Of a DNA stretch of 64,000 nucleotides, positions 24,387 to 63,140 are shown in pieces. Numbering within the stretch: position 1 is the first letter of the stretch; each line of letters starts with the position of its first letter. The stretch is from Bacillota bacterium (GTDB lineage: Bacteria > Bacillota > Negativicutes > CTSoil-072), in the NCBI GenBank assembly GCA_017889545.1, contig JAGFZV010000016.1, forward strand, positions 9,124 through 73,123. Direction: 5' to 3'. Made by a program: the position numbers and the translations under genes. The notes beneath the pieces are model-generated. The model was not told the DNA's origin. It ran no database searches and saw nothing but the letters and a program-made list of their open reading frames with translations.

Positions 24387-24388
24387 TC

Positions 24389-24955: not shown

Positions 24956-24956
24956 T

Positions 24957-25874: not shown

Positions 25875-25960
25875 AGCTGAGCCCAATCCTTTACCTCGCC
25901 ACTGCAGTTTGTCACAGGCAGACGCAGGCAGGCAGTCTACATGCAGAAAGGTGTTTTAAA

Positions 25961-26635
25961 ATGAACGAACTTAATACCCTCGAACTTGAACAGCTATTTT
26001 CCTTCCGGGGTGCCATATACCAGTTGCTTTCCCGGTTCTATCGCCGGGAAATGGATCAAGAACTTCTGAACCAACTACACCAACTGGAATTTGAAGCGGA
26101 TATCACTTTACCGGAAATTCTGGAAGGTAATCGATTGTTGAAGATCTTCTTGGCACAGATGGGAGAAAATGCGCTGACCGATCTTGCGGTAGACTACGCA
26201 AAGATTTTCCTCGGAGCAGGTCCAACATGCGGGGAAGGAGCATATCCCTATGAATCCGTATATACCAGCCCCGACCGCCTGCTGATGCAAAACGCCAGAG
26301 ACCAGGCTGTCGCCATCTACAGAAGCGAGGATATCCGACTTGAAGACAGCTTCAACGAACCGGAGGATCATATTGCCATTGAATTGACATTCATGGCTTA
26401 TCTATGCCAGAAGACTTCGGAGGCAATCCGTCGCAACGATGAAGCTGCCGCCAATAGCTGCCTGCTGAAACAGCGACAATTTCTTCAAGATCATCTGCTA
26501 TCTTGGGTACCCAATTTTTGCGCCGATGTTCAGCGCATTGCTGCAACCGACTTTTATAAAGCGATTGCTATGATTACGTATGGTTTTCTTATCATGGATC
26601 GGGATATGACTTTAGGCAAGCATAGCACAACTTGA
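25961..26635 (+). CDS. TorD/DmsD-family redox enzyme maturation chaperone
   Basis: 224 aa with an EPEDHIAIELTFMAYL motif typical of the TorD family, located directly after dmsC. Confidence 0.65.
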   Translation: MNELNTLELEQLFSFRGAIYQLLSRFYRREMDQELLNQLHQLEFEADITLPEILEGNRLLKIFLAQMGENALTDLAVDYAKIFLGAGPTCGEGAYPYESVYTSPDRLLMQNARDQAVAIYRSEDIRLEDSFNEPEDHIAIELTFMAYLCQKTSEAIRRNDEAAANSCLLKQRQFLQDHLLSWVPNFCADVQRIAATDFYKAIAMITYGFLIMDRDMTLGKHSTT

Positions 26636-37165: not shown

Positions 37166-37187
37166 GCAGAATACCTCCTCATAAATT

Positions 37188-38459
37188 TTATCGGATGATA
37201 GGCAACATATCCGGTGCATGGGTAAGCACGGTTACTTTCGCTGTTTTCCCCTGGTTTTCAAAGGCCGCATTCAATGCGTCCTGCACAGTGGCAAACGGAC
37301 GGAAGCCGAGTTTTTGAGCCTCTTCGGGAGCAATGCCGTCAGAAACAATATAGACCGTTTCCCGTTCCTTGACTTGGGCCCAAGCGATCGCCAAGGCGGC
37401 CGCAACTTCGTCCCCAACTTGTTTCTTCGTTACCATTTGTCGCAATTCTTCGGCTGAATAACCGGTAATATCCACGATATCGGAATGAGTCACAGCAACG
37501 CCTTCATAGCAAGGGGTTGCAAGAATAATTGTCCCGCCGGCTTTTACGGCCAGGTCCGACGGATACAGCGTCTTGTGCGCCTGCCAAAATTCAAGATCGC
37601 AAGGGTGGGAACTGGAGATAACAATATCGGCTTCTTCCGGGATCTCGACAGCATATACTTCTTTCGACGAGACAACGCCCGCTTGAAATGCTTCCTCCAA
37701 ATCACCGAAGAAAGCGCCTACCACTTCTCCGTGGCGATTTAAAACCGTATTAAAGATCGTATGCATGCCAATCTGACCGGCGATCCTGTTCAGTTCTTTA
37801 CGAACCGGATTATCTTCTATTCCCAGATAGGAACGCGGCGCCCGCACACTGAGCAAATGAGTTTCGGCTGTAGTGTGTTCGCCGGAAATACCCGGCTGAA
37901 CAATCTTGGCTCCGCCGGCAAAGCCGGGAATGTGGTGAGGAACAATGCTGCCGATGCCGATCTTAAAATCTGCTTCGTATGCTTCGCGATTAACCCAGAT
38001 ACTTGTCCCGTTTGGCGTATTGCCAAGGTCAATCAACGCTTCCGGATTTTTGAAGTCGTGATTTTTGATTTGAACCCGTTTTACTACGTCTTCGCCAAAC
38101 TTAACGGCAATTTCTTCCTCCGTCATAAAGCGGTGAGTGCCAAGCGCGATGATGATCGTGATCTGTTCGTCGGCAATTCCAGCGGCATTCATTTCATCAA
38201 GAAGAACAGGAATGATTTTTTCCGTTGGCGTTAAACGCGTATTATCATCCGCTACAATCACCACTTTTTGCGCGCCGGCTGCCAGCTCGCGCAAGGTTTT
38301 TGTGCCGATCGGCTGGTTTAACGCACGAACGACTTCCTGTTTGACATCAGACACCGGCTTCACATCTTTGGGTGAATAAGCGCCAATCAGATTTTCTTTC
38401 GGAACAGCGACTTTTATCGTTTTTTGTCCGTAGGGCAATGATAAAATGATCTCTTCCAT
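37188..38459 (-). CDS. LarA-family (DUF2088) nickel-pincer-nucleotide-dependent 2-hydroxyacid racemase/epimerase homolog
   Basis: The start is reset to MEEIILSLPYGQ (RBS GGAAGGAAG). It is a paralog of larA at 7853, and the ADDNTRLTP motif aligns to the LarA SDHTRP motif. It lies inside an acid-sugar operon rather than a lactate operon. Confidence 0.65.
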   Translation of the reverse strand: MEEIILSLPYGQKTIKVAVPKENLIGAYSPKDVKPVSDVKQEVVRALNQPIGTKTLRELAAGAQKVVIVADDNTRLTPTEKIIPVLLDEMNAAGIADEQITIIIALGTHRFMTEEEIAVKFGEDVVKRVQIKNHDFKNPEALIDLGNTPNGTSIWVNREAYEADFKIGIGSIVPHHIPGFAGGAKIVQPGISGEHTTAETHLLSVRAPRSYLGIEDNPVRKELNRIAGQIGMHTIFNTVLNRHGEVVGAFFGDLEEAFQAGVVSSKEVYAVEIPEEADIVISSSHPCDLEFWQAHKTLYPSDLAVKAGGTIILATPCYEGVAVTHSDIVDITGYSAEELRQMVTKKQVGDEVAAALAIAWAQVKERETVYIVSDGIAPEEAQKLGFRPFATVQDALNAAFENQGKTAKVTVLTHAPDMLPIIR

Positions 38460-38538
38460 GAAACAATCTTCCTTCCACATCGATATTTTCATCTGCACTG
38501 GTAACCCACAAACTTCACATCTTCTTCCGGTAATCGGT

Positions 38539-39543
38539 TTATTCACCCGCCCCTTCCGCCATGCGGGCGGCAAACTCAATCGCAGCGATCATGCTGCTGC
38601 TGTCGGCAATGCCTTTGCCGGCAATATCAAAAGCGGTTCCGTGATCGACGGAAGTGCGGATAAAGGGAAGACCAACCGTAATATTGACCCCATTATCAAA
38701 CCCAAGCAGTTTAATCGGAATGTGTCCCTGATCATGATACATGACGACAACAATATCAAATTCCTTGCGGCAAACAGCGCGAAAAAATACGGTGTCAGGC
38801 GGAATAGGACCACTCGCGTCAATACCGCTGTTCCGGGCATCCTCTACAGCCGGAGTGATTTCGTCTATTTCTTCCCGGCCAAACAAACCGTGCTCTCCGG
38901 CATGCGCATTGAAACCGGCTACAGCAATTCTAGGCTGTTTTAAACCAAGCAGCCGCAGCGTCCGATCAGCCAAACGAATGATTCTGAGGACGCGATCCCG
39001 CTTGATAAGGCCTGCAGCGTCGCGCATAGAAACATGGGTCGTGACATGAATGACTTTCAAAGTATCGCCTGCAAGCATCATGGCATAGTCTTTCGTGTTG
39101 CTGAGTTCGGCGAGTATCTCCGTGTGTCCGGGAAAATTATGCCCCCCCATATGAAGCGCTTCTTTGTTGAGAGGAGCGGTGACAATACCGGCTACCTCGT
39201 GGTTCATAGCCTGCTTTATGGCAGCCTCCAAATAGATATAAGCCGCATGTCCGGCCAGTGCGTCGACCTTTCCAAACGGCAAATCTTCAGGAATATTAGC
39301 AAAATCAAGTACATCAATCTTGCCAAACTGATACGTTCCTTCCCGTGCATCAGAAAGACTCCGCACTTCAATTGAACTCTGCAAAATAGCCGCAGCAAGG
39401 CGGATACGGCCCGCATCACCAAAAACTAACGGACGGCAGATACGGTAAACCTTTTCGTCCAAAAGCGCCTTAACGATAATTTCAGCTCCGCATCCGGCGG
39501 CATCCCCCATGGTAATCGCCAAAATTGGCCGTTGTTCCACCAT
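38539..39543 (-). CDS. pdxA2: PdxA family NAD-dependent 4-phospho-hydroxy-acid dehydrogenase (PdxA2-like, decarboxylating)
   Basis: The start is reset to MVEQRPILAITMGDAAGCGAEI (RBS GGAGGAG). The PdxA fold shows HTEIL and HVSMRDAAG blocks. Confidence 0.7.
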   Translation of the reverse strand: MVEQRPILAITMGDAAGCGAEIIVKALLDEKVYRICRPLVFGDAGRIRLAAAILQSSIEVRSLSDAREGTYQFGKIDVLDFANIPEDLPFGKVDALAGHAAYIYLEAAIKQAMNHEVAGIVTAPLNKEALHMGGHNFPGHTEILAELSNTKDYAMMLAGDTLKVIHVTTHVSMRDAAGLIKRDRVLRIIRLADRTLRLLGLKQPRIAVAGFNAHAGEHGLFGREEIDEITPAVEDARNSGIDASGPIPPDTVFFRAVCRKEFDIVVVMYHDQGHIPIKLLGFDNGVNITVGLPFIRTSVDHGTAFDIAGKGIADSSSMIAAIEFAARMAEGAGE

Positions 39544-39544
39544 C

Positions 39545-40828
39545 TCATCTCCTCCGAATCCGTTTGACAATTTTGAGCAAAACGTCAGGACTGCCAAACG
39601 CGCCCGCCTTTGTAATCACTTTTAACACAATTCCTTCCGTGGTCCTCATCTCACCCAACGGAATTCCCGGCGCCAATTCTTCAATCACTTGGATACCGGA
39701 TACGCCAAGATCCCGGCAAACCGCAGCGGCAGTATCACCACCGGTAAGAACCACGCAGGCAACTTCCTGTTGAAGAAGAATAGACGCGCCAATGCGGCCA
39801 AGGATGCCGGCCACAGCCTCACCAACCTCAACCGATGACATTCCCAGCTTGGATCCTGTGTTTTGCGTCTCCTGTACTGCATCGCTTTGATAACCGGACG
39901 CAAGAACAATATTTTTCCCATTTTCCATATAGCCGATCGCCGTTTGAATATATGGCTGAATACAGTCGTTTTGATTAGAAAAACAGTCTGCCGCCCGAAC
40001 TTCAATCAGTTCAAACCCGCCATCCAGGAGCAAAGCAATTTGTCTGTGCGTCACCAAACTGACGCTGCCGGCAACAACCAATATCGGCTTAAAATTCTGC
40101 ACCTCAGCCTGGAGATTCAACAATTGCGGCAAACAGTCAGCCAAACCTGCTGAACCGGACCAGAGAACCCGGCTGGATATGAGCGTTGCAGCCCGTGCTG
40201 CCATCTGGAATTGTTCATCCAGCCATGCATCGCAGCTGATGATCCGGCAACCTTCTGCTAAATACTGCTGAATTGCTTTTACAATAGCTTCTTCTCCTTG
40301 GCAAATTTCATCAATCCCGATATGGCCTACTTTTAATCCAGATTGTTGTCGCAATAATTTCGGCAGGACCGTTTCACATACCGGGCATTTTGGATCATGA
40401 GCGATTTCTGTCGCTGCCAGAGGAAGGCCATGCAAAAGGTGGTTCCCGCCGATCGTTGTCCGCCCATTTTTAGGAAAAGCCGGCATCACAAACGCAAAGT
40501 CATGGAGGCCTAAGTCAAGAATTGCTTTTAATTCCACACCTACGTTTCCGCGCAAGGTAGAGTCTATTTTCTTGTAACAATGAAAAAAGCCCGCATCATA
40601 AGCTTGTTTTACCGCTGCTTGCACTTTCCGGTAAGCTTCTTGTGCAGGGATGGCCCGGCTGCCTGTGTCGATAACAATCGCGGTCGCGCCGGATGAGGTT
40701 TGAAATTCCGCGCCTTCTAAAATAACCCATGTCTGCAATCCATGGCGCGCAAATTGCACCCCGGTATCATTCGCGCCAGTCAAATCATCTGCAATGACAA
40801 CGATGGATTGAGTTATTTCCTTCAACAT
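39545..40828 (-). CDS. four-carbon acid-sugar kinase (DUF1537/DUF4392; OtnK/DtnK family)
   Basis: The start is reset to MLKEITQSIVVIADDLTGANDTG (RBS AAGAGG). The N-terminal ADDLTGA nucleotide motif is characteristic of the YgbK/OtnK family. Confidence 0.65.
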   Translation of the reverse strand: MLKEITQSIVVIADDLTGANDTGVQFARHGLQTWVILEGAEFQTSSGATAIVIDTGSRAIPAQEAYRKVQAAVKQAYDAGFFHCYKKIDSTLRGNVGVELKAILDLGLHDFAFVMPAFPKNGRTTIGGNHLLHGLPLAATEIAHDPKCPVCETVLPKLLRQQSGLKVGHIGIDEICQGEEAIVKAIQQYLAEGCRIISCDAWLDEQFQMAARAATLISSRVLWSGSAGLADCLPQLLNLQAEVQNFKPILVVAGSVSLVTHRQIALLLDGGFELIEVRAADCFSNQNDCIQPYIQTAIGYMENGKNIVLASGYQSDAVQETQNTGSKLGMSSVEVGEAVAGILGRIGASILLQQEVACVVLTGGDTAAAVCRDLGVSGIQVIEELAPGIPLGEMRTTEGIVLKVITKAGAFGSPDVLLKIVKRIRRR

Positions 40829-40899
40829 GTATACCTCTTTTCCCATAAAAAGTATTCCGCTGAGTTTGACTGAAAAGAAGGACTCTATTTTAATTTTCT

Positions 40900-40918
40900 C
40901 ATTTGCCCTAAGCAAATG
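40900..40918. promoter_or_regulatory. palindrome CATTTGC-cctaa-GCAAATG about 75 bp upstream of the otnK-like operon
   Basis: Read directly; a candidate operator for the acid-sugar operon. Confidence 0.3.
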
Positions 40919-41046
40919 CAACATTCTTTTTATTATTTACATGCTAACGCGCCGCATCGTCCGGCATTATCGAATGCAGTTCCTAATTCAAAAAACACTT
41001 TTCCTCCTGACCTTAACCAATTCATCGGACAAAGTGAATACTGCGA

Positions 41047-45519: not shown

Positions 45520-47148
45520 TCATTCCACACTGATGATCCATTGGTAATTAGGCTGTCCTCCATAATAAAGTTCAACGCCCAGGTCCGGAAACCTGTCGAT
45601 GAGAAATGCCGACATTGTTTTTGCTTCATCGGCGCTAACTTGTTGCCCGTAATACAAACTGATAATCTCGCTGTCAGCCTCAATCAATTGTCGGATCGTT
45701 TCAACCAACACGGTTCCCAATTCCTGCCCTGTCGCTGCAAGCTGATTTTCACAAAAACCGATAAATGCGCCGGCAGCAATGGTATGGCCGTCTAAAACGC
45801 TGTCACGAACAGCATTCGTTACACTGCCGGAACGCACTTGCAGCAAGCGCTGCTGCATGGAAGTCAAGTTCTCCGGCAAACTGTGCCCGGCGTTGAAGCC
45901 CAATAATGCGGCAAAACCTTGCGGTATCGTCAGCGTAGGAAGAACGGCTACTTTGTCGCCCAGTATTTTTTTTGCCTGTGCCGCAGCCAAAACAATATTT
46001 TTATTGTTAGGTAAAATAATATACTGTTTTGCATTTCCGGTTTGTACGGCAGTTACAAATTCTTCCACCGGTGGGTTCATTGTCTGCCCCCCGGAAATCA
46101 CTACCTCAGCACCTAGTTTTACCATCATATCGGTAATTCCTTTGCCGGCAGCAACACTAATCACCGCTAGACCGGCTTTTCGAGGAGAAGGTTGATGCAA
46201 TGTACGATGCTGATCCTGCATATTATCCACTTTAATGTCATGCAAACTGCCCCACTGAATAGCCGCACCCAGTACAGCGCCTGGATTCGCAGTATGAATA
46301 TGAACCTTCAGCAGCGCGTTATCCGCCGCTAATACGATGGATTCCCCTAGCGGGAGCAATTTTTTCTGCGCTGCCTTGGCACTCACTCTGCACCGTTTGA
46401 CGATAAATTCCGTACAATACGGATGAACTTGCTCCGTCATTCCTTCATTCAAGCCAAATGCTTCCGGCTGGACCATTTCAAACTGCGGCCTGACATCCAT
46501 GATTTCAGTTTCTATCTCGTTTTCTTCCAGTCCTTTCAGACAGCCTTGAAAAAAAACGATTAACCCTTGGCCGCCTGCATCAACCACGCCGGCTTCTTTC
46601 AAAACCGGTAATAATTCTGGCGTCCGGGCCAATTCCACTTGACCGGTTTGGATCGATGCCGATAAGATTTCTTTGAACGAGGACCCGTCTCGGACTGCCA
46701 TATAGGCCCCTTTGGCGATCCCTTTTGCTACTGTTAAGATCGTTCCCTCCATGGGTTTTGCCACAGCCCGGTATGCGTATAAAACTCCATATCGGAACGC
46801 CTTAGCCAATTCTGCTGTCGTGGCCTCTTTTTTTCCAGCTAACCCGCGGGCAATCCCCCGGAAAAGTTGCGATAATATGACTCCGGAGTTTCCTCTTGCT
46901 CCCATAATGGCACTGTCTGCCGCCCGTTTACTCAAAGTGCCAATACTGGTTTCTGGAGCGCAGGAGACCTCTTTCGACACTGCATCGAGCGTCAATAACA
47001 TATTTGTGCCGGTGTCTCCGTCAGGAACAGGAAAGACATTCAAACTGTTAATATATTCATATTCCTGCAGAAAAGACTGATAGGCCCCGGCAATCATCCG
47101 GCGATAGTCTTCGCCGGTTATCCGTTCTTTATCCTCTGGCAAAATCAC
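45520..47148 (-). CDS. fakA: DAK2-domain protein, fatty acid kinase subunit FakA (YloV-like)
   Basis: NVFPVPDGDTGTNM motif near the N-terminus plus a C-terminal DegV-like domain. The start is set approximately (GTG/TTG with RBS AAGGAG; track ORF 47193). Confidence 0.65.
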   Translation of the reverse strand: MILPEDKERITGEDYRRMIAGAYQSFLQEYEYINSLNVFPVPDGDTGTNMLLTLDAVSKEVSCAPETSIGTLSKRAADSAIMGARGNSGVILSQLFRGIARGLAGKKEATTAELAKAFRYGVLYAYRAVAKPMEGTILTVAKGIAKGAYMAVRDGSSFKEILSASIQTGQVELARTPELLPVLKEAGVVDAGGQGLIVFFQGCLKGLEENEIETEIMDVRPQFEMVQPEAFGLNEGMTEQVHPYCTEFIVKRCRVSAKAAQKKLLPLGESIVLAADNALLKVHIHTANPGAVLGAAIQWGSLHDIKVDNMQDQHRTLHQPSPRKAGLAVISVAAGKGITDMMVKLGAEVVISGGQTMNPPVEEFVTAVQTGNAKQYIILPNNKNIVLAAAQAKKILGDKVAVLPTLTIPQGFAALLGFNAGHSLPENLTSMQQRLLQVRSGSVTNAVRDSVLDGHTIAAGAFIGFCENQLAATGQELGTVLVETIRQLIEADSEIISLYYGQQVSADEAKTMSAFLIDRFPDLGVELYYGGQPNYQWIISVE

Positions 47149-47155
47149 ACGCTCC

Positions 47156-48004
47156 TTATGCAGACACAATTCTTTGCTGAAACACAAATCCAATCAATCC
47201 CGGCCCCAGATGAGTTGCCAAAACTGTCCCTCCATCGGTAACCGATAAGCTAAGTCCCGGACAGCATTCCGCTATTCTAGCACACAATTGCTGCGCTTCT
47301 TCCAATGCTTCAATCTGAACCACGCCGACATATTCCAGATCATCGTATTTTTTCAGTTCTTCCAGCAAGCGAGTGATCGCTCGCGCCCGGGTTCTTATCT
47401 TATCCAGCACCGCCACCCGTCCATCTACAAGCTGTAAAATAGGGCGAATTTGCAGTATTCCGCCGAAAAGTGCAGCTGCTCCGCCGATACGCCCGCCACG
47501 ATGCAGGTACTCTAAAGATCCAGGAACAAACATTGTACACGTTGCTTTCGCCAACAGGTGCAAATAATCGGCAATCTCGGCAGCCGGAACCTGATCAGCG
47601 GCTAAACGCAAAGCAGTTTGCGCCATTTTGACCATCCCGATTGCAGTTGTCCCCGAATCAATCACGAATACATTTTTTCCAAGCATTCGGGCGGCAATTT
47701 CAGCGCTTTGCACCGTCCCGCTCAAACCTCCGCTCATTGTGATCACAATGATGTCGGCGCCATTGGCAGATAACGGCTCCATCACGGCCATAAAATCGCC
47801 AGGCGACGGTTGGGAAGTTCTCACTTGAAAATTACTGTCTTTCATCTGTTGAAACAATTGCTCATTCGTTAATTCTCCATCCAACCATACTTGACTGCCA
47901 CGAATTACTTTTAATGGCACTACATGCAAGTTAGCGTATTCTTTTAACATTTGCTGCGGAACATTCGCTGTACTGTCAAGAATTATGTGGATTGTTTTTG
48001 CCAT
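47156..48004 (-). CDS. DegV-family fatty-acid-binding protein (FakB-like)
   Basis: The start is reset to MAKTIHIILDSTANVP, the classic DegV N-terminus. 282 aa. Confidence 0.7.
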   Translation of the reverse strand: MAKTIHIILDSTANVPQQMLKEYANLHVVPLKVIRGSQVWLDGELTNEQLFQQMKDSNFQVRTSQPSPGDFMAVMEPLSANGADIIVITMSGGLSGTVQSAEIAARMLGKNVFVIDSGTTAIGMVKMAQTALRLAADQVPAAEIADYLHLLAKATCTMFVPGSLEYLHRGGRIGGAAALFGGILQIRPILQLVDGRVAVLDKIRTRARAITRLLEELKKYDDLEYVGVVQIEALEEAQQLCARIAECCPGLSLSVTDGGTVLATHLGPGLIGFVFQQRIVSA

Positions 48005-48189
48005 AATCAAGCCCCTTTGTAAATCCTTACCTCTCTTTATTTTATCAGATTTATTCTCGGAGTACATACAAAAACCTGATCCAGCCGTAAGAACTCGCAA
48101 GGCTGCCAAATCGTTGCCAGCAACAAAAAAGGAGTTTAAGGTTTAAAATCGAAGTAATTACTATTCAAATGAGTATGCAGGAGTAATAT

Positions 48190-50343
48190 ATGGGAAAAAA
48201 TCTATTATTTGCGCTGGATATCGGCACCCGAAATGTTGTCGGCCTGGTTGGCAAACGCATCGGCGATTCGATCGATATCCTGGCTGTACACCGGCAAGAG
48301 CATAATACCCGTTCGATGCTGGATGGGCAAATCCATGATGTCCCTGAAGTAGCAAAAGTGATTGCCGCTGTAAAAAATCATCTTGAGGCTTCCGTTGGGC
48401 CGTTGCGGAGAGTATCTGTTGCTGCCGCCGGCCGTGCTTTGTTTACTATTCATACAAGGGCGGAAATAGAGACTTCACTCAGCAAAACGCTGACTTCGGA
48501 CGAGGAAAGAACGCTTGAACTTGCCGCCATTCAAGCTGCACAGAAACAATTGGCCGCAACGAAATCAATTGCAGATCCTGGCAGCTATTATTGCGTTGGC
48601 TACAGTGTTGTGAGTTTCTCGTTGGATCAAACGCCTTTAAAAACTCTGGAGGGACAGCGGGGTAAACTAGCGGCAATCGAGTTAATCGCTACCTTTTTGC
48701 CCCGGCAGGTCATTGATTCACTGCAGTCCGCTCTTGAATCAATCGACTTGGAAATGTCTACGCTGACCCTCGAGCCTATTGCCGCAATCAGTGTCCTGAT
48801 CCCCCCTTCCATGCGCCATCTGAACCTGACACTTGTCGATATTGGCGCGGGAACATCCGACGTTGCCGTCACACGCACGGGGTCGGTTGTGGGTTACGGA
48901 ATGGTGCCTTGTGCCGGTGACGAGATAACCGAAGCGATTTCTTCGAAATTTCTTTTAGACTTTAACGTTGCAGAAACAGTGAAACGTCGCCTCGGCAGCA
49001 GTAAGTCACGGAAAATCCCGTGCACTGACGTTCTGGGTATAAAGCACAAGCTTACCCCAAAAGAAATCATTGACGTCATTTCACCCGATGTAAAAGAATT
49101 GGCTCAGACGATTGCGGACCAAATTCTGGTTCTGAACATTACGCCGCCGCAAGCGGTCTTACTCGTTGGCGGTGGAGCAATGACGCCCTTGCTGCCCGAA
49201 TTTCTTGCCGAAGCATTGAAACTTCCGGCTTCGCGAGTAGGAATCCGAAGGCCCGATAAAAGTGCGGGAATGGTGAAAATTCCTGATGAGTTGTGCGCAC
49301 CGGACGCCGTAACGCCACTCGGCATTTTAAAACTGGCCGATAGCCGCGCTCTGACGTTTGTCAACGTGACTGTCAATAATCAATTACTGCGGCTTTTCAA
49401 CCTTGGCGGCCTCACCATCGGCGATGCCCTGCTGACAGCCGGCATCGATGTACGCAGTCTGCATGGCCGGCCCGGTTTAGGAATTACGGTAAGCATCAAT
49501 GGGCAAACGGCCTTTATTCCCGGCGGCAATCCCGAACCTGGCAGTATCCATAAAAACGGGATCACGGCAAAGATTTCCGATCTCCTGCAAGAACAGGATG
49601 TCATCGAAGTCACCAAAGGCGCCAATGGAATAACTCCTCAGCCCCCTTTACATACTGTTGCGAAAATCCCTTCTTCCTATAACATTACAGTAAACGCTCA
49701 GGACTATGTAATCCAGCCTAAAATCACAATTAACGGCGCACCCGCCTCAACGGATACCCCGTTAACAGATCGGGATCGAATTATCATATACCTCCCAACA
49801 ACCCTTGAAGACGTCATCCAATCGCTTGGTTTTTCGCCGGCGCCAACCCGCTTTTCCTATACAGTCAATGGCCAGCCCCGATTATACAGCGTAGCGCCTC
49901 ATTTCACCGTCAACAATTTACCTGCTGAGTTATCGACTGTTCTTCATAATCACGATACAATCAACATTATTGCGCCTTCGTTTCCGACAATTTCTTCCTT
50001 ACTGGGATTGAATGAAACCGGCAATGAATTTATTACCATCGTATTCAACAATTCCGAGATCCAAATACCCGCATTTCGCTATACCATCCTGTTAAATAAA
50101 CAACCCGCCAAGTTAACTGATACAGCCGTGAACGAAGCTTATATCGACTATGTATGTCATGATCAATCCCATCCTACAATTGGCGAGGTTCTGCTGGCAG
50201 TTGATTTTGATCCCCGAAAACTATCCAGCAGGACGCAAGTAACGATTTTACACAACAACCAGCCGGCTGAATTTACCACCTTAATTCATAACGGCGACCA
50301 AATCCAACTACTCCTTTCAAAGGAAACTGCAGTCAAAGAATGA
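48190..50343 (+). CDS. FtsA-like actin-fold ATPase fused to about five tandem ThiS/MoaD-like beta-grasp repeats
   Basis: The N-terminal ~400 aa has FtsA/actin-fold motifs (LDIGTRNVVGLVG; LVDIGAGTSDVAV; LVGGGAMTPLL). The C-terminal ~310 aa contains repeating modules of the form (I/V)T(V/I)N(G/N)Q...P(A)...GD.I..(I/L), for example TVSINGQTAF...DVIEV, KITINGAPAS...DRIIIY and TILHNNQPAEF...GDQIQL. Confidence 0.5.
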   Translation: MGKNLLFALDIGTRNVVGLVGKRIGDSIDILAVHRQEHNTRSMLDGQIHDVPEVAKVIAAVKNHLEASVGPLRRVSVAAAGRALFTIHTRAEIETSLSKTLTSDEERTLELAAIQAAQKQLAATKSIADPGSYYCVGYSVVSFSLDQTPLKTLEGQRGKLAAIELIATFLPRQVIDSLQSALESIDLEMSTLTLEPIAAISVLIPPSMRHLNLTLVDIGAGTSDVAVTRTGSVVGYGMVPCAGDEITEAISSKFLLDFNVAETVKRRLGSSKSRKIPCTDVLGIKHKLTPKEIIDVISPDVKELAQTIADQILVLNITPPQAVLLVGGGAMTPLLPEFLAEALKLPASRVGIRRPDKSAGMVKIPDELCAPDAVTPLGILKLADSRALTFVNVTVNNQLLRLFNLGGLTIGDALLTAGIDVRSLHGRPGLGITVSINGQTAFIPGGNPEPGSIHKNGITAKISDLLQEQDVIEVTKGANGITPQPPLHTVAKIPSSYNITVNAQDYVIQPKITINGAPASTDTPLTDRDRIIIYLPTTLEDVIQSLGFSPAPTRFSYTVNGQPRLYSVAPHFTVNNLPAELSTVLHNHDTINIIAPSFPTISSLLGLNETGNEFITIVFNNSEIQIPAFRYTILLNKQPAKLTDTAVNEAYIDYVCHDQSHPTIGEVLLAVDFDPRKLSSRTQVTILHNNQPAEFTTLIHNGDQIQLLLSKETAVKE

Positions 50344-50356
50344 GAGAACCGCATCC

Positions 50357-50404
50357 AAAAATAGAGACCGGAGAGCATCGATGTGCTGTCCGGTCTCTAT
50401 TTTG
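50357..50404. terminator. bidirectional terminator between the ftsA-like gene (+) and crp (-)
   Basis: 12-bp stem atagagaccgga/tccggtctctat with flanking A- and T-runs. Confidence 0.55.
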
Positions 50405-50442
50405 GATATTGCAATGACAACGGCAATCCAGTTCAGCCAAAG

Positions 50443-51203: not shown

Positions 51204-52508
51204 TCACGCTTGTCGCGCCAGTTTTTGAAAGGCGATACTGCTGGCAGCAATTGTTGCCTCGATGTCTGCATCCGTATGCGCAATCGACATAAACCCGGCT
51301 TCAAATTGTGAAGGAGCCAAGTAAATACCCTGTTCCAGCATAGAGTGAAAATACCGGTTGAAAGCGCCCACATCCGAACACTTGGCGGTTTCGTAATCAA
51401 CCACCTCTTGATCGGAAAAGAATGTACAGAACATCGTCCCAATATGATGAAACTGCAAATGAAATCCGTACTTTTCCGCCTCATTCCGGATGCCATTGCA
51501 CATCCGCTGGGTCAGAACTGTCATCCGCGTATACAGGTCCGGATCATCTTCCAGAATTTTCAATGTAGTAATCCCTGCTACCATCGCCAGCGGGTTGCCG
51601 CTTAACGTACCCGCCTGATAGACCGGACCTGCCGGCGAAATCAGTTCCATGATTTCCCTGCGGCCGCCATAAGCGCCAACCGGCAAACCACCGCCAATCA
51701 CCTTGCCCAAGCAGGTCAAATCCGGTTTAATTCCGTAAACCGACTGTGCACCACCAAACGCAACTCGGAAACCCGACATCACCTCATCAAAAATCAGCAG
51801 AGCGCCATGGGCAGCAGTAATTTTGCGCACTTGGGCCAAGTAACCCTGTTTTGGCAAAACCAATCCCATGTTTCCTGGAACGGGTTCAATAATGACTGCG
51901 GCAATATCCTCGCCTTGCCGGGCAAAAACTTCCGCCAAGGTTTCCGCGTCATTATAAGGGACCGTAATTGTTCCGGCAGCAACATTGCCAGGCACGCCAG
52001 GGCTATCCGGCGTTCCCAGCGTCAAGGCGCCGGATCCGGCCTTGACCAGTAAACTGTCATGGTGGCCATGGTAACAGCCGGCAAATTTAATAATCTTATT
52101 TCTTCCGGTATAGGCCCGCGCCAAGCGAAGAACGCTCATTGTCGCTTCCGTACCGGAGTTAACCATTCTGACCATTTCCATAGAGGGGACAATCTGCGTA
52201 ATTTTCTTTGCCAACTCTGTTTCCAGCAATGTCGGCGCTCCATAGCTCGTTCCCCGGGTAGCCGCCTGCTGCAGCGCCTGGATGACGTCGGGGTGGGCAT
52301 GACCTAAAATCATCGGCCCCCAAGAGCCAACATAATCGATGTATGTATTGCCATCAATGTCTGTTAATCGACTGCCTGAACCGCTGGCAATGAACGGCGG
52401 CGTCCCGCCTACGCCTCGAAAAGACCGAACGGGACTGTTAACCCCACCGGGAATATATTGTTTTGCTTCGGCAAACGCCGCTGCCGACTTCTCCAAATGA
52501 ATACTCAT
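51204..52508 (-). CDS. hemL: glutamate-1-semialdehyde 2,1-aminomutase
   Basis: 434-aa PLP aminotransferase class III with the HemL N-terminus ([23 protein letters not shown]). Confidence 0.85.
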
Positions 52509-52532
52509 ATTTTGCCTCCTCTTGTCAAATTG

Positions 52533-53510
52533 TCAAGATTCTTGCAACCAACGGGCAGCATCCAAGGCATGATACGTAATGATCATCTCGGCGCCCGCAC
52601 GTTTCATTCCCAGCAGTGTCTCCAGAACAATTTGCCGCTCATCCACCCATCCATTCGCCGCTGCCGCTTTCACCATAGCATATTCGCCACTTACGTTATA
52701 AACAGCAACCGGAAGATCAAAGCTGTCTCGAACCTGCCGCACAACATCCAAATAAGCCAACGCCGGTTTTACCATGATAATGTCGGCGCCCTCTTCAATA
52801 TCCAACGCCACTTCCCGCAGCGCTTCCCGGACATTGGCCGGATCCATCTGATACGTCTTTCGATCGCCAAATTGAGGCGCAGAGTCAGCGGCTTCCCGGA
52901 AAGGTCCATAGTAAGCCGATGCATATTTGGCTGCATACGACATAATCGCAACTTGTTCATAGCCCCGACTGTCAAGGGCCTCCCGGATCGCACGAACCCG
53001 CCCATCCATCATATCGGATGGAGCGACCATATCCGCACCGGCTTCGGCATGACTCAATGCAACCCGCCCCAGCAAACTTAATGTGAGATCATTGTCAACA
53101 TTCTGCCCGCGAAGCAACCCGCAATGGCCATGGCTGGTATATTGACACAGACAAACATCGGTTATTACAGTCAACTCCGGAATTTCCTTCTTAATGAGGC
53201 GAACCGCCTTCTGCACAGGGCTGGCCGGATCCCAGGCACTGGACCCCTGATCATCTTTGTATTCCGGCAAACCAAAAACCAATACAGCCGGAATGCCAAG
53301 TCCATAAGCTTCCCGTGCCACTTCCAAAGCCATGTCAACCGATAAATGACAAGAGCCCGGCAAAGAAGGAATTTCGCACTGCACATTTTCTCCCGGTACA
53401 ACAAACAATGGATAAATAAGATCCGCTGCATTGAGCTCGGTCTCCCTTACCATATTCCTGATCGTCGGAGACCTCCTTAGCCGTCTCGGTCGAATAAATG
53501 GTCTGCTCAT
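52533..53510 (-). CDS. hemB: porphobilinogen synthase (delta-aminolevulinate dehydratase)
   Basis: 325-aa HemB signature ([18 protein letters not shown]...; active-site Lys region). Confidence 0.85.
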
Positions 53511-55036
53511 TTTTCCGCCTCCCCTGCAACCAGCAATACAATTGCATCAACTAATCCTTGTATTGTATATTCACTGGCGATACAATCCGTCGCAATTCCG
53601 TGTTCCTGACAAGTTAACGCAGTGATCGGCCCAATGCAGGCCGTTTTCGCATGCGAAATTAATTCTGTCCCCCGTTCTCCCAGTATACTGAGTAAATTGG
53701 TGACAGTTGAGGAACTGGTAAAAGTAATGAAATCAATCGCGCCAGACGCCAGTTCTTTCACCAAATAACCGCCATCCGCATCGCCGATTTCGGTACGGTA
53801 GGCTTCCACTACATCCACGACGGCGCCAATTTCCGCCAACTGCTTGGGCAGCACATCACGGGCCACTGCCGCGCGTGCAATGAGCACCTTCGCGCCAGGC
53901 TGCAACCTGTCTTGCAAGGCGGCAACAATGCCTTCAGCCCGGAATTCCAAGGGAACAACGTCTGCTTTGATCCCGTTCTCACGCAAACGCTCTGCGGTCT
54001 GCGAGCCAATCGCTGCAATCTGGATACCGGCTAAGGCCCGGCTGTCAAGGCCGGCCGCCCATAACCGCCGATAAAAATAATCCACACCATTCGCACTGGT
54101 AAAAATCAGCCATTGATAGCTAAATAAATTGTCAATCGCTGCATCAAGAGCGGCGAAGCTTTCCGGCGGAACAATTTTAATTGCCGGCGCCTCAAAACAT
54201 TCCGCACCGAGAGCTTCCAATTTATCCGTCAGCAGGCTCGCCTGCTCCCGGGCACGGGTAACCAATATTCTTTTACCGAATAACGGACGCTTGTCAAACC
54301 AAGCCAACTGTTCCCGCAGGTTCACTACATCACCGACAATAAAAATAGCCGGCGGCTTGATTCCCTGCCGGGCTACCTCTTGTGCTGCCCGTCCTATCGT
54401 AGTAACCAACGTTTGCTGCTCCGGCTTCGTACCCCAGCGAATAACCGCTGCAGGCGTAGTTTCCGGCCGCCCATTGGCAATTAAACTAGCCGTAATATGC
54501 GGCAAATTTTCAACGCCCATTAAAAACACCAGGGTATCGACACTGGTCGCAAGTTTATCCCACCGAATGGAAGACTCGGATTTATCGGGATCCTCGTGGC
54601 CTGTGATCACTGCAAAAGAAGCTGCAACTCCCCGATGCGTAACCGGAATACCCGCATAAGCCGGAACGGAAATCGCAGAGGTGATACCGGGCACAATCTC
54701 AAAAAGTATTCCCGCTTCCTTTAGTTTTATCGCTTCTTCACCGCCGCGCCCAAACACAAAGGGATCGCCGCCTTTCAGGCGAACGACCGTTTTTCCCGCA
54801 AGTGCTTTATCGACAAGCAATTGATTGATGTCTTCCTGTCGCATCGTATGATCGCTGGAAGCCTTGCCTACATAGACCAATTCCGCGTCAGAACGCGCAT
54901 CACGCAATAAACGGCTGTCTGCCAAACGATCGTAAACAATCGTATCCGCTTCGCGGATACAGTCTACAGCCTTCAAACTGATCAGCCGGTAATCTCCCGG
55001 CCCGGCTCCCACTAAATATACTTTACCGTTCTTCAC
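53507..55036 (-). CDS. bifunctional uroporphyrinogen-III C-methyltransferase / uroporphyrinogen-III synthase (CobA-HemD fusion)
   Basis: N-terminal SUMT motif ([18 protein letters not shown]) and a C-terminal HemD domain. 509 aa. Confidence 0.8.
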
Positions 55037-55991
55037 TATGATTGCCTCCTGTCACAGTAAAATCCTCAAGCGCTGCTAATATCTCCCGGCCCCCGGCCGC
55101 CAGCATTCGCTTCGCCAACTCATCACCAAGCGCCTCACCGTCTGCAGCATCCCCACATACTTGATCCTTAATCATCGTTTGCCCGTCAACAGAAGCAATC
55201 AATGCCGATAAACTCAACCGCTGCCCGGAAATTTCCCCATATACTCCGACCGGAACTTGGCAGCCCCCCTCTATCACACGCAAAAAAGCCCGCTCGGCAA
55301 ATACTGCTGCACGGGTTTCCTGATCATTCAAAAAAGACAGCAATTCCAAGACTTCAACATCATCTTGCCGGGCTTCAATCGCCAAAGCTCCCTGCCCAAC
55401 AGCCGGCAAACAAATAGAATGCGGCAACACCTGGGAAATCTCCTGTTCCCAGTCCAAACGTTTTAATCCCGCAACAGCAAGAATAATAGCGTCCAGTTCC
55501 TGTGTTCTCACCTTATTCAGCCTGGTATCCAGGTTTCCCCGCAAATCGCTGATCAGCAAATCCGGACGATAGTGTAACAACTGTGCACGACGACGCAAAC
55601 TAGAAGTTCCAACCCGGGCGCCACGCGGTAATTCATCCAGCGTTGAAAAACGGGGGCTGATCAAAGCATCTCCCGGATCCGCGCGTCGCGTAACAGCTGC
55701 AAGGGTCAATCCCGGCGGCAATTCCGTCGGCATATCTTTCAAGCTATGAACAGCCAGATCGATCTCGCCCTGCAGCATGGCAGTCTCCAGCTCTTTGGTG
55801 AATAATCCTTTTCCGCCAATTTTTGCCAGAGGCACATCCAAGATGCGATCGCCGGTCGTGACGATCCGGACAATGGTCACTTCAACGGATGGATAGCGCG
55901 TCCGTATTGACTCAGCAATATGGTTCGCCTGCCACAGCGCCAGCTTACTTCCGCGCGTACCGATAACAAGATTTTTTTTCAATGGTGACAT
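55023..55991 (-). CDS. hemC: hydroxymethylbilane synthase (porphobilinogen deaminase)
   Basis: VIGTRGSKLALWQANHI N-terminal signature. Its start appears to overlap the hemA 3' end. Confidence 0.85.
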   Translation of the reverse strand: MSPLKKNLVIGTRGSKLALWQANHIAESIRTRYPSVEVTIVRIVTTGDRILDVPLAKIGGKGLFTKELETAMLQGEIDLAVHSLKDMPTELPPGLTLAAVTRRADPGDALISPRFSTLDELPRGARVGTSSLRRRAQLLHYRPDLLISDLRGNLDTRLNKVRTQELDAIILAVAGLKRLDWEQEISQVLPHSICLPAVGQGALAIEARQDDVEVLELLSFLNDQETRAAVFAERAFLRVIEGGCQVPVGVYGEISGQRLSLSALIASVDGQTMIKDQVCGDAADGEALGDELAKRMLAAGGREILAALEDFTVTGGNHSEER

Positions 55992-57261
55992 CCTCTCCTA
56001 AATCATCCAGATGAAACAAACTGCGTAAAGCTTCCTGGTAATACTGTTCCTTATCGGTTCCAGCCACTTCATTCATTCTGATCATCGGTTCGCGTAATAA
56101 TTTGCGAACTAACATTTTTGACATATTTTCCAATACTTTTCGTTCCTCAGCGGTACAATCCGGCAATTTAGCCAATGCCCTTTTCATTTCCCGCTGCCGT
56201 ATCCGCTCCGCCTTATCTTTTAACAAGGCAAGCGTCGGTTGAAACGACAAATAGCGAAACTTGGCAACCAGTTCAGCCAGTTCTTCTTCCACAATGCCAT
56301 CAGCAATCAGAGCTTCTTTTTCCCGGCCGCGCAAATTGGATTCAACCACAGCTTCCAAATCGTCAATATTATGCAAACTGACGCCGGCAATCGCTGCCAC
56401 CTCCGGTTCGACGTCCCGCGGCACGGCAATATCGATAAAAATAATCGGACGTCCCTTGCGTTTCGGCATAATGTGCGCCACTTCTCTGGATCGGACAATA
56501 TAGTGCGGCGCTCCAGTCGAAGTAATCACGATATCGGCGTCCACTGCCGCCTTCATAAAACGATCAAACGGTACCGCAACGCCCTTAAAATTCTCCGCCA
56601 ATCGAACAGCCCGGTCATAATTCCGATTGGAAACGAAGACCGTTTTTACTCCATTGGCAACAAGATGGCGAGCCGTCAATTCACCCATTTCGCCGGCGCC
56701 AAGGATCAACACATTCGATTGAGATAAATCGCCAAACGTTTTTTTCGCCAGTTCCACCGCAGCATAGCTGACCGACACGGCACTGTACGCAATGCGGGTT
56801 TCCGTCCGTACTTTTTTCCCTACCGCAATCGCCCGGTTAAATAAAGTATTTAATACCGTTCTGGTTGTCCCTGCATCGCGGCCGATTGCATAGGCGTCCT
56901 TCACTTGGCTCAATATCTGGCCCTCGCCAATCACAAGTGAATCCAGTCCGGATGCGACCCGGAACAAATGACGGATACAGGCTTCTTCCACATAATAAAA
57001 AAAATACTCTCCGACTTGCGGATCGCTGGCCGCCATTTTTTTAAAATAAGTGCACAGCACAGGGTAAGCCTCTTGAACATCCGTAACTACAGCATACAAT
57101 TCAGTGCGGTTACAGGTAGATAAAATGACGCACTCGTCAATCATATCCTGTTCCCGCATGTGATGCAGAGCCACCCGAATCTGCTCTTCAGAAAATGAAA
57201 ATTGTTCCCGAACTTCTACGGGTGCAGTTTTATGGTTTAATCCCAATACAATCAATTGCAT
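55945..57261 (-). CDS. hemA: glutamyl-tRNA reductase
   Basis: The start is reset to MQLIVLGLNHKTAPVEVRE. The active-site Cys context (LSTCNRTELY) and an NADP Rossmann motif (LILGAGEMG) are present. Confidence 0.85.
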   Translation of the reverse strand: MQLIVLGLNHKTAPVEVREQFSFSEEQIRVALHHMREQDMIDECVILSTCNRTELYAVVTDVQEAYPVLCTYFKKMAASDPQVGEYFFYYVEEACIRHLFRVASGLDSLVIGEGQILSQVKDAYAIGRDAGTTRTVLNTLFNRAIAVGKKVRTETRIAYSAVSVSYAAVELAKKTFGDLSQSNVLILGAGEMGELTARHLVANGVKTVFVSNRNYDRAVRLAENFKGVAVPFDRFMKAAVDADIVITSTGAPHYIVRSREVAHIMPKRKGRPIIFIDIAVPRDVEPEVAAIAGVSLHNIDDLEAVVESNLRGREKEALIADGIVEEELAELVAKFRYLSFQPTLALLKDKAERIRQREMKRALAKLPDCTAEERKVLENMSKMLVRKLLREPMIRMNEVAGTDKEQYYQEALRSLFHLDDLGEDVTIEKKSCYRYARK

Positions 57262-57877
57262 CGTTAATCTTTGCCTCCGCCTCTTGCATTCTGCCCTGCC
57301 GCAGCAGAGCCAATATTTCACTATCCAATGTTTCCCGCCAAAAACAAACCCTCTCATCGGCGGAATGGATACGATTTTTCACTTTTTGCCGCGCCTTTGC
57401 GATCAATTCCAAGTACTGGCCATACTCCGGGCCATATTCTGCCGCTAATTTCTCCCGCAAACGCCGGGATAACGCGGGACTATGACCGCCTGTCGAGACC
57501 GTCAACAAAAGGTCGCCCCGGGCCACTTGCGCCGGCACCAAAAAATCGCCCTTCTCAGGCGCATCAACCACATTCACTAAAATACGTTGTGCCTGAGCTT
57601 CTTCGCTTACAAGACGATTAATTTCCGAACGATCAGCAGCACAGATAACCAATAAATGGCCTGTTGTATCTCCCGTTTGATACGGCCTGTCGACATGAAT
57701 AATTTGTCTGTCAGCAGCCAACTTTGCAAGTCCATCCGTCAAGCGCGGACTGATGACCGTTACAACAGCCCCGGCAAGCAGCAAAGACCGTACTTTGCGC
57801 TCTGCCACTGCGCCGCCGCCAATAACCAGGCAAGGCTTCCCTTCAATCAGCAGGTTCACCGGATAACAGTTCACCAT
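57230..57877 (-). CDS. sirC: precorrin-2 dehydrogenase / sirohydrochlorin ferrochelatase (SirC/Met8-like)
   Basis: 215 aa with the N-terminal NAD motif (LVIGGGAVAERK). It is the first gene of the heme operon. Confidence 0.7.
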   Translation of the reverse strand: MVNCYPVNLLIEGKPCLVIGGGAVAERKVRSLLLAGAVVTVISPRLTDGLAKLAADRQIIHVDRPYQTGDTTGHLLVICAADRSEINRLVSEEAQAQRILVNVVDAPEKGDFLVPAQVARGDLLLTVSTGGHSPALSRRLREKLAAEYGPEYGQYLELIAKARQKVKNRIHSADERVCFWRETLDSEILALLRQGRMQEAEAKINDAIDCIGIKP

Positions 57878-63063: not shown

Positions 63064-63140
63064 TGGTGACCCCGGAGGGATTCGAACCCCCGACCCTCTG
63101 GTTCGAAGCCAGATGCTCTATCCAGCTGAGCTACGGAGTC
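63064..63140 (-). tRNA. tRNA-Arg (anticodon UCG), CCA-encoded
   Basis: A manual cloverleaf fold of the reverse complement gives a 7-bp acceptor stem, D-stem GCTC/GAGC, and anticodon stem TCTGG/CCAGA. The anticodon loop is CTTCGAA (U33, anticodon TCG, A37). The T-loop is TTCGAAT, the discriminator is A73, and there is a 3' CCA. Confidence 0.65.

Follow-up and report, generated by a model that had tools for sequence, protein, structure and literature searches.

The gene at 48190..50343 (+) of the analysed window, a 64,000-nucleotide stretch of contig JAGFZV010000016.1 (assembly GCA_017889545.1) from a Bacillota bacterium of the class Negativicutes, encodes a 717-aa protein of the FtsA family (ATG start, 717 codons plus stop, as given in the open reading frame list), which is referred to below as the long form because it extends far beyond the FtsA-like ATPase domain into a chain of ubiquitin-fold units. 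The start codon is preceded, at a distance of six bases, by the ribosome-binding site AGGAG (48179..48183, +), read from the sequence. An independent public assembly contains an identical protein, encoded between the same neighbors, and full-length homologs show 54-96% identity, so that the gene is real and complete. Between the long-form gene and the convergent crp/fnr gene, there is a hairpin (50351..50412, not assigned to either strand) with a long, perfect stem, a long loop, an A-run before it and a U-run after it; its predicted RNA fold has an energy of -37.4 kcal/mol (z -7.67), and none of 200 shuffled sequences is equally stable. This element is likely to be a two-way intrinsic terminator. 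A pattern scan for sigma-70 promoters and terminators was uninformative and missed the hairpin because the loop limit of the scan is 8. Judging from its own ribosome-binding site, its own terminator and the opposite-strand neighbors, the gene stands alone.

The N-terminal part of the protein (residues 1-385; 48190..49344, +) is confirmed, by profile matches and by the predicted structure, as an FtsA-type actin-fold ATPase with the 1A/1C/2A/2B order of subdomains and intact nucleotide-binding motifs (TIGR01174, AlphaFold2 and Foldseek). The sequence-only reading, made before any database search, had proposed an FtsA-like actin-fold ATPase of about 400 residues, and the searches bear this out, with the boundary placed at about residue 385. 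The best Pfam match of the window protein is FtsA, PF14450 (E 2.8e-12), followed by MreB_Mbl and PilM_2. The ftsA profile TIGR01174 aligns over nearly its entire length (residues 6-379 to model positions 2-368 of 371) with a score of 95 bits against a cut-off of 175.85; the score for NF007009 is 46 against a cut-off of 409, and that for the PilM profile TIGR01175 is 48.5 bits against a cut-off of 133. The DDR and EutJ models match the same domain as well. By sequence, the nearest solved relatives are FtsA chains (7q6g, E 4.6e-12). A Foldseek search of the Protein Data Bank (PDB) started with the AlphaFold2 model, which was built from 62 homologs and has a mean predicted local distance difference test score (pLDDT) of 85.7, ranks FtsA of Xenorhabdus, Vibrio, Escherichia coli, Thermotoga and Staphylococcus first, with E-values from 6e-28 to 1e-21, target-normalised template modelling (TM) scores of 0.76-0.84 and a root-mean-square deviation (rmsd) of 3.5-4.8 A; the top FtsA alignments reach TM 0.82-0.84 at rmsd 3.5 A over about 400 columns. 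PilM comes next (TM up to 0.82, E 7e-21), and then MreB (TM about 0.6).

The phosphate-1 motif L9-D-I-G-T13 (48214..48228, +), the phosphate-2 motif D217-I-G-A-G-T-S-D224 (48838..48861, +) and the adenosine-binding G327-G-G329 (49168..49176, +) all fall in conserved columns of the family alignments, the last two in invariant ones. The three motifs had been picked out in the initial reading, and the alignments support all of them: D10-I-G-T13, D217..D224 and G327-G-G329 are invariant in 62 close and 19 distant sequences (the latter down to 31% identity), and the nucleotide motifs are invariant or at least 90% conserved in the 62 close and 148 broad family members. Two further FtsA-type motifs, R-x-M-x-D-G-x-I and A-E-x-x-K-R-x-L-G, are kept, as judged by eye from a comparison with FtsA of Bacillus subtilis. 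An inserted subdomain that resembles 1C of FtsA (residues ~85-171; 48442..48702, +) shows the order strand, helix, three strands in the AlphaFold2 secondary structure. The corresponding Pfam domain, SHS2_FTSA (PF02491), is absent from the Pfam matches of the window protein and of every listed homolog, and the 1C-like subdomain is apparently too divergent in sequence for this profile to detect.

The matches to PilM_2 and TIGR01175, the PilM structures with TM scores up to 0.82 and the fact that several members of the family are named "pilus assembly protein PilM" by NCBI are compatible with an alternative in which the long form serves a pilus, competence or secretion machine as a cytoplasmic platform of the PilM type. 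PilM (2ych, 5eou) indeed resembles the long form in having an FtsA-like actin fold and a 1C-type domain and in not being itself membrane-anchored, but it has no beta-grasp tail. FtsA is ahead of PilM both by profile and by fold (95 vs 48.5 bits; E 6e-28 vs 7e-21), and the PilM score falls far under the 133-bit cut-off. In addition, the recurrent neighbors in a sample of 80 loci (those of +/-10 kb discussed below) and in the PGAP annotation of Anoxybacillus are housekeeping genes. Among the recurrent neighbor families characterised in the 80 loci, a set that leaves low-frequency neighbors outside, there are no pilus or secretion genes, pilN/O/P/Q included. A PilM-type function thus appears very improbable.

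Residues 386-717 contain five mutually homologous ThiS-like units, which take the place of the flexible linker and the membrane-targeting helix of FtsA. The first unit, beta-grasp module 1 (residues 389-475; 49354..49614, +; pLDDT 85-96 in the AlphaFold2 model of the tail), consists of a hairpin (389-404), a helix (410-424), an inserted hairpin (432-443) and a strand-NG-strand element (452-475); it is the best-conserved part of the tail and holds the invariant G426-R-P-G429. Units 2-4 share a plan that includes a short helix (P-T-L-x-E-V-L), a hairpin (x-V-N-G-x) and a strand-NG...D-G-D-strand element. Unit 2 (residues 484-536; 49639..49797, +) has a short helix and a hairpin followed by ITINGAPA...DRDRIIIYL; unit 3 (537-596; 49798..49977, +) has the helix PTTLEDVIQ, a hairpin and FTVNNLPA...HDTINIIA; unit 4 (597-660; 49978..50169, +) has the helix PTISSLLG, a hairpin and TILLNKQPA...AYIDYVC; and unit 5 (661-712; 50170..50325, +), which is without the hairpin, has the helix PTIGEVLL followed directly by VTILHNNQPA...NGDQIQLLL. 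A hidden Markov model (HMM) of the pooled units finds five copies in the window protein (404-484, 480-538, 534-597, 595-662 and 657-717) with independent E-values that span 6.5e-7 to 3.4e-14 (2.1e-12 for unit 2, 3.4e-14 for unit 3, 7e-10 for unit 4 and 6.5e-7 for unit 5). Among 438 full-length members, the number of units found with the same model is five in 226 cases, four in 202 and three in 10. When the units are cut from the family alignment and compared profile to profile, they show mutual homology with the probability of 97.7-99.4% and E-values from 1e-12 to 6.6e-22: for unit 2, hhalign E-values against units 1, 3, 4 and 5 are 2e-12 to 6e-19; for unit 3, they are as low as 6.6e-22; and for unit 4, they are 1e-17 to 6.6e-22 in the comparisons with units 1-3 and 5.8e-13 in that with unit 5.

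In the window protein, Pfam detects nothing significant past residue 380 (the best match is Ub-RnfH, E 0.13), with no ThiS match at E <= 1. The relationship becomes visible in the homologs: among the 62 analyzed, 29 match ThiS at E <= 0.01 (best E 1.9e-10), 22 match Ub-Mut7C, eight ThiS-like, three TGS and two S4. In the ten homologs inspected, the ThiS scores (25.5-36.4 bits vs the cut-off of 22.5) are sums of partial matches to four of the five units. The matched stretches lie at about 452-476, 513-535, 572-597 and 661-708, the last of which, in unit 5, is the commonest best-scoring stretch (PF02597; residues ~661-708 aligned with model positions 21-70). A search of PDB sequences with the tail profile yields sub-threshold matches only (MoaD, TtuB, YabO and ribosomal protein S4). 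ThiS, MoaD, TtuB and SAMP (PF02597; 1ryj, 5gha, 3po0) share with the units the pattern h-T-I-N-G-x...L-x-D-G-D-x-I-x-h. Compared with ThiS, module 1 has the inserted hairpin as an extra element, whereas units 2-5 are without the canonical N-terminal hairpin.

An AlphaFold2 model of residues 381-717 alone has a mean pLDDT of 89.1. A fold search with this model gives three matches at E <= 0.001, all of them to bacterial multi-ubiquitin proteins (9cd2, 9d5a; E 3e-6 to 2e-5), and the weaker matches are nearly all to ubiquitin-fold proteins as well, including ISG15, talin F0-F1, the tandem Ubl of OASL, SAMP1 and the TGS domains of SpoT and Rel. The single-domain ThiS-like matches, Mth1743 (TM 0.56) and TtuB (TM 0.55-0.59), extend over 87-89 columns and most likely belong to module 1 because this length matches its 87 residues. 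Thus, the fold matches of the modelled tail point to at least one complete beta-grasp domain, of which module 1 is the likeliest candidate. For units 2-5, mean-field direct coupling analysis of 1,851 pooled units makes visible only the hairpin and the antiparallel pairing within the strand-NG-strand element; these units may be either autonomous shortened beta-grasp domains or strand-sharing ones, with either a canonical sheet or a meander. The five ThiS/MoaD-like modules that had been recognized from sequence alone are supported, as five homologous units over ~330 aa, with the full beta-grasp order of elements limited to module 1; the structure prediction suggested at that stage as a check has returned ubiquitin-fold proteins nearly throughout.

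The nearest tandem precedent for the tail, at the fold level only, is the Ubl3 family of multi-ubiquitin proteins (9cd2, 9d5a, 8u38), in which tandem beta-grasp domains likewise occur in one bacterial polypeptide. Gong et al. (PMC11601603) describe self-assembly of these proteins into filaments. They differ from the long form in having three domains rather than five, a different arrangement of the domains relative to each other (rmsd above 34 A) and other N-terminal domains that are not ATPases. Moreover, Ubl3 genes belong to ubiquitination-like operons with E1, E2 and JAB components, types of which are described in PMC1779556 and PMC11601603, whereas the long-form gene is monocistronic, with unrelated neighbors, and its product has no C-terminal glycine. 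ISG15, the OASL tandem Ubl and talin F0-F1, which rank directly after the multi-ubiquitin proteins, consist of consecutive ubiquitin-fold domains that bind proteins, but here too the likeness is at the fold level only, with 7-12% identity and an unrelated context.

The ThiS and Ub-Mut7C matches in the homologs, together with the multi-ubiquitin proteins at the top of the fold search, might suggest that the tail is a processed and conjugated poly-ubiquitin-like modifier or a sulfur carrier, by analogy with ThiS/MoaD/TtuB or Ubl3. In contrast to ThiS, MoaD and TtuB, the tail is a tandem fusion that has no Gly-Gly end and no E1-like partner: the window protein ends with ...SKETAVKE, the C-termini vary across the family, Gly-Gly is missing also at the unit boundaries, and no genes for E1/ThiF, E2 or JAB are found among the recurrent neighbor families of the 80 loci or in the window. 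Nor do the recurrent neighbors (fakA/fakB and crp in Negativicutes; aroA, ccpA and ytxJHG in Bacilli) include MoeB or sulfur-transfer enzymes. Because of the missing Gly-Gly end and the lack of E1, E2 and JAB neighbors, the tail does not appear to be a conjugated modifier, and this possibility can be considered effectively refuted. A role in defense or in phages was considered and rejected as well: the PADLOC defense models give a marginal match only (15 bits, E 0.0017), and there are no tail homologs among 50,697 phage records.

Conservation is unevenly distributed along the protein, with a mean frequency of the major residue of 0.63 in the ATPase core, 0.61/0.50 in module 1 and 0.36-0.44 in units 2-5. 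The tail is acidic (family median isoelectric point, 5.2), and the conserved positions are occupied by turn residues (N, G, D); the family alignments contain no conserved basic patch or ligand-type residue in the tail. These features bear on another alternative, namely that the protein is an Hsp70-, EutJ- or reactivase-like ATPase or regulator, the units of which bind RNA or a small ligand in the manner of TGS, S4-like or SLBB domains. The weak strand-NG-strand matches to TGS (3 of 62), S4 (2 of 62), YabO and ribosomal protein S4, the matches of the DDR and EutJ models to the N-terminal domain and the presence of the SpoT and Rel TGS domains among the fold matches of the tail are in line with such a function. 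However, the FtsA fold match is far better than those of MreB, EutJ and DnaK, the top of the fold search with the tail is occupied by ubiquitin-like arrays that bind proteins, and the tail is acidic. Nucleic acid binding by the tail accordingly seems unlikely from its composition, and we rate the entire alternative as quite unlikely.

The tail is not uniform across the family. In the Acetoanaerobium member (locus L081, 7941-10076), module 1 and the last unit are kept, and the middle of the tail is partly replaced by an acidic low-complexity sequence (...DIDEEELEEAKENYFENL...). The shorter members (602-678 aa) match the first two or three units only. It thus seems to be the units in the middle of the tail that are dispensable or variable.

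A search with the tail alone against 1.84 billion cluster representatives (50% identity) gives 499 matches at E <= 0.001, 221 of these at E <= 1e-10; in nearly all of the 499 representatives, the tail is located at ~381-710 of proteins of ~700-740 aa. Among the best 150 tail matches, 123 also possess the FtsA-like N-terminal domain, and the other 27 (131-381 aa, with a partial tail) are most likely fragments; 105 of the 150 are at least 590 aa long and, of these, 85 are 694-745 aa long. A scan of one genome per GTDB species was performed with two family-specific peptide patterns, including the phosphate-2 stretch; the scan was seeded from the full-length alignment, the tail-only alignment being too variable. 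At least 599 stretches matched the patterns, and at least 571 of them encode relatives. Among the best 80 of these at least 571 loci, residues ~6-710 are covered in all but a few. These 80 loci come from Negativicutes (Pelosinus, Selenomonas, Mitsuokella, Pectinatus, Anaerovibrio), Bacilli (Brevibacillus, Lysinibacillus, Sporosarcina, Peribacillus, Niallia, Kurthia, Virgibacillus, Oceanobacillus, Anoxybacillus and others) and Clostridia (Acetatifactor, Heliobacterium). The long form is not seen in the partial, "plasmid"-labelled ftsA-ftsZ records of Staphylococcus aureus and Listeria monocytogenes, and B. subtilis presumably lacks it. Clostridioides difficile is also without the long form (PMC13584725).

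An artefact of gene fusion or assembly can be rejected given that the identical architecture is present in hundreds of independent genomes. The N-terminal domain of the window protein is 69% identical to that of the long form from Sporomusa and 50% identical to that from Niallia, a member of Bacilli, compared with 24% for B. subtilis FtsA. A comparison of the Niallia long form with B. subtilis FtsA also gives 24%, whereas two canonical FtsA proteins, those of B. subtilis and Aeribacillus, share 65% identity. Because the N-terminal domains of long forms from different classes are 50% identical and share only 24% identity with B. subtilis FtsA, the long form is a separate orthologous group that spans three classes of Bacillota. 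The architecture, described as unusual in the sequence-only reading, is thus unusual relative to the literature but not relative to the genomes, where it forms a phylum-wide orthologous group. A sporulation-specific gene was considered and rejected given the presence of the long form in Selenomonas, Mitsuokella, Pectinatus and Kurthia, which are not known to form spores.

The canonical FtsA proteins used for comparison, i.e., the 120 best matches to B. subtilis FtsA, come from the B. subtilis group, Metabacillus and a few other or unclassified Bacillaceae, with none from the genera in which the long form was found; they are 396-440 aa long (mostly 427-440), and PF02491 is found in all 120 listed. 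Canonical FtsA ends in an amphipathic helix and the window protein does not, a contrast already drawn from the sequence and now substantiated: the C-terminus of B. subtilis FtsA is the amphipathic ...KMKKLLSMFWE, whereas in the long form, the C-termini are variable and both a hydrophobic segment and a membrane helix are missing (maximum hydropathy 1.52). A secreted protein was also considered and rejected, there being no signal peptide or transmembrane segment. The long form thus resembles FtsA (7q6g, 7q6d, 1e4g, 3wqt) in its fold, subdomain order and nucleotide-binding motifs but fails four features that define FtsA, namely, the curated profile score, a recognizable SHS2 domain, the membrane helix and linkage to ftsZ within the division and cell wall (dcw) cluster; at ~24% identity, it carries ~330 aa of beta-grasp units in place of the linker and the amphipathic helix. 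Taken together, the sequence and the models suggest that the long form descends from FtsA and may work like it. The gene is apparently a paralog of ftsA and is located outside the dcw cluster. One long-form homolog is named "ftsA 1" by its source, from which we infer a second ftsA in the respective genome.

Genomic context was examined in the 80 loci of +/-10 kb and in the window. No FtsZ signature is found in any frame of the window, in agreement with the initial statement that no ftsZ adjoins the gene, and none is found in the 80 loci; the same holds for a second FtsA-like open reading frame. In 48 Bacilli loci, the long-form gene is alone on its strand between aroA-ccpA and ytxJ-ytxH-ytxG-murC, an order that is confirmed by the PGAP annotation of Anoxybacillus amylolyticus (NZ_CP015439.1); in B. 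subtilis, the aroA-ytxJ region is presumably present without the long-form gene. In Negativicutes, including the window, the gene has fakB(degV)-fakA as its divergent neighbors and a crp/fnr gene as its convergent one, and the pairing of fakA with DegV/FakB recurs in 18 Negativicutes loci. No neighbor recurs from one class to another; therefore, the context gives no functional partner. In Bacilli, the gene lies close to ytxJ-ytxH-ytxG, and the PDB entry 9a51, which appears in the list from the Foldseek search, is an integrative model that combines YtxH with the actin-like Mbl; the adjacency may be a coincidence, or it may be a lead that YtxH-type proteins contact actin-fold ATPases.

In the window, the divergent pair (45520-48109, -) encodes FakA, with the domains Dak2, FakA-like_M and FakA-like_C, and the DegV/FakB protein of a fatty-acid kinase. 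The listed start of the DegV frame (TTG, 317 aa) makes the frame too long; gene callers place the start near 48004, which gives 282 aa. Farther from the long-form gene, positions 51204-57357 (-) hold an unbroken row of heme/tetrapyrrole biosynthesis genes (hemL, hemB, a cobA-hemD fusion, hemC and hemA), and positions 35438-40924 (-) consecutively encode a dihydroxy-acid dehydratase, a LarA-like protein, a PdxA-family dehydrogenase and an SBD_N/NBD_C (DUF1537-type) kinase, a row that, by its gene content, looks like a catabolic cluster for four-carbon acid sugars. The region 22000-26000 is GC-rich (0.53-0.55 vs ~0.46 elsewhere), and an 856-aa open reading frame is located at 21816-24386 (+). 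The sole Rfam match in the window is one tRNA gene (63067-63140, -).

The relation of the long form to cell division is best considered in Acetoanaerobium noterae (NZ_CP154629.1, 2.63 Mb), where the dcw cluster at 1971238-1986191 runs murD-ftsW-murG-ftsQ-DUF881-DUF881-DUF1290(sbp)-ftsZ-nrdR, without ftsA before ftsZ. The sole match to B. subtilis FtsA in this record is the 711-aa long form, 417 kb from ftsZ, and the long form may be the only FtsA homolog in the genome. Given that it is the only such homolog on the replicon that carries ftsZ, it may have a role in division. Under the respective alternative, the long form is a working FtsA that binds FtsZ through subdomain 2B and reaches the membrane or the divisome with its beta-grasp chain, serving as the sole FtsA in some lineages. 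This scenario accords with FtsA being the nearest family by both sequence and fold and with the retention of the two additional FtsA-type motifs. Yet, ftsZ is adjacent to the gene neither in the window nor in the 80 loci, a membrane-targeting helix is missing, and the score is below the NCBIfam cut-offs for FtsA. Furthermore, Lysinibacillus, Brevibacillus and Niallia, all of which possess the long form, are known to carry ftsA-ftsZ. Absence of ftsA also does not amount to its replacement: C. difficile, which is related to A. noterae, has no FtsA and relies on SepF for its division (PMC13584725), so that loss of ftsA in this order does not by itself imply a takeover by the long form. On balance, a working FtsA appears unlikely. 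As a separate observation, the records NZ_CP015439.1 and NZ_CP154629.1, which are labelled plasmids in PLSDB, carry core genes (murC, ccpA and aroA, and the whole dcw cluster, respectively) and are therefore chromids or mislabelled chromosomes, which is a caveat for plasmid statistics.

The explanation that we favor, and to which we give an even chance, is that the long form is a soluble FtsA-like ATPase, the beta-grasp chain of which would serve as a protein-interaction or spacer arm. Under this scheme, the protein is predicted to be soluble and to bind ATP in the same manner as FtsA, could self-associate in a nucleotide-dependent fashion and would not be a membrane tether of the Z-ring. Module 1 is predicted to pack on the ATPase or to communicate with it; the two probably act together because module 1 shows core-like conservation, contains the G-R-P-G loop and starts immediately after the last core helix. 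Units 2-5, in which the structural turns (NG, D-G-D) are kept and the surfaces are variable, could form an arm of ~10-15 nm, as estimated from the typical domain size, that would be a spacer or a multivalent protein-binding platform, as is usual for ubiquitin-fold domains. These units fit such a spacer or docking arm because they are variable (0.36-0.44) and yet their number and the total protein length (~700-740 aa) are kept across classes. We infer a scaffold role for the long form; that this role lies in the organisation of the cell envelope or division is a guess from the resemblance to the family only.

A more far-reaching version of this proposal, which we put forward tentatively as a possibility of rather low probability, is that the long form represents a third FtsA-type cytoskeletal branch: an ATP-dependent filament or oligomer that, in many Bacillota, would present ubiquitin-fold arrays for multivalent docking and would serve a conserved process of the cell. 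Such a branch might have a role in organisation of the envelope or septum or, where ftsA has been lost, e.g., in Acetoanaerobium, be an alternative organiser of the Z-ring. It would have escaped notice because B. subtilis (presumably) and C. difficile (PMC13584725) are both without the long form. Several points weigh against the soluble-ATPase scheme with its interaction arm. The predicted TM score of the models is 0.56-0.60, so that the inter-domain geometry is uncertain; in A. noterae, the long form is the sole FtsA match in the record; and no literature on the family or its function was found. Specifically, in two broad surveys of prokaryotic beta-grasp domains (PMC1779556, PMC1949818), no fusion with FtsA, actin or Hsp70 is mentioned, and a Firmicutes-wide survey of division genes does not mention a long FtsA paralog.

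The family is currently mislabelled as FtsA, PilM or a rod shape-determining protein, and the names given by the sources conflict, including "cell division protein FtsA", "FtsA domain-containing protein", "rod shape-determining protein" and "pilus assembly protein PilM". As a consequence, counts of "FtsA" that are based on Pfam domains will score the long form as FtsA, e.g., in A. noterae, where the dcw cluster is without ftsA. The long form is a real, widespread and uncharacterised branch of the bacterial actin family, with an architecture that is conserved from Negativicutes to Bacilli and Clostridia. The reference bacterial actins are FtsA, MreB, ParM and PilM; with each branch that was added, another piece of cell organisation has come to light. 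If the long form polymerises, it would be the first bacterial actin with a poly-ubiquitin-fold arm; if it does not, it would still be a conserved ATPase of industrial, soil, rumen and gut Bacillota.

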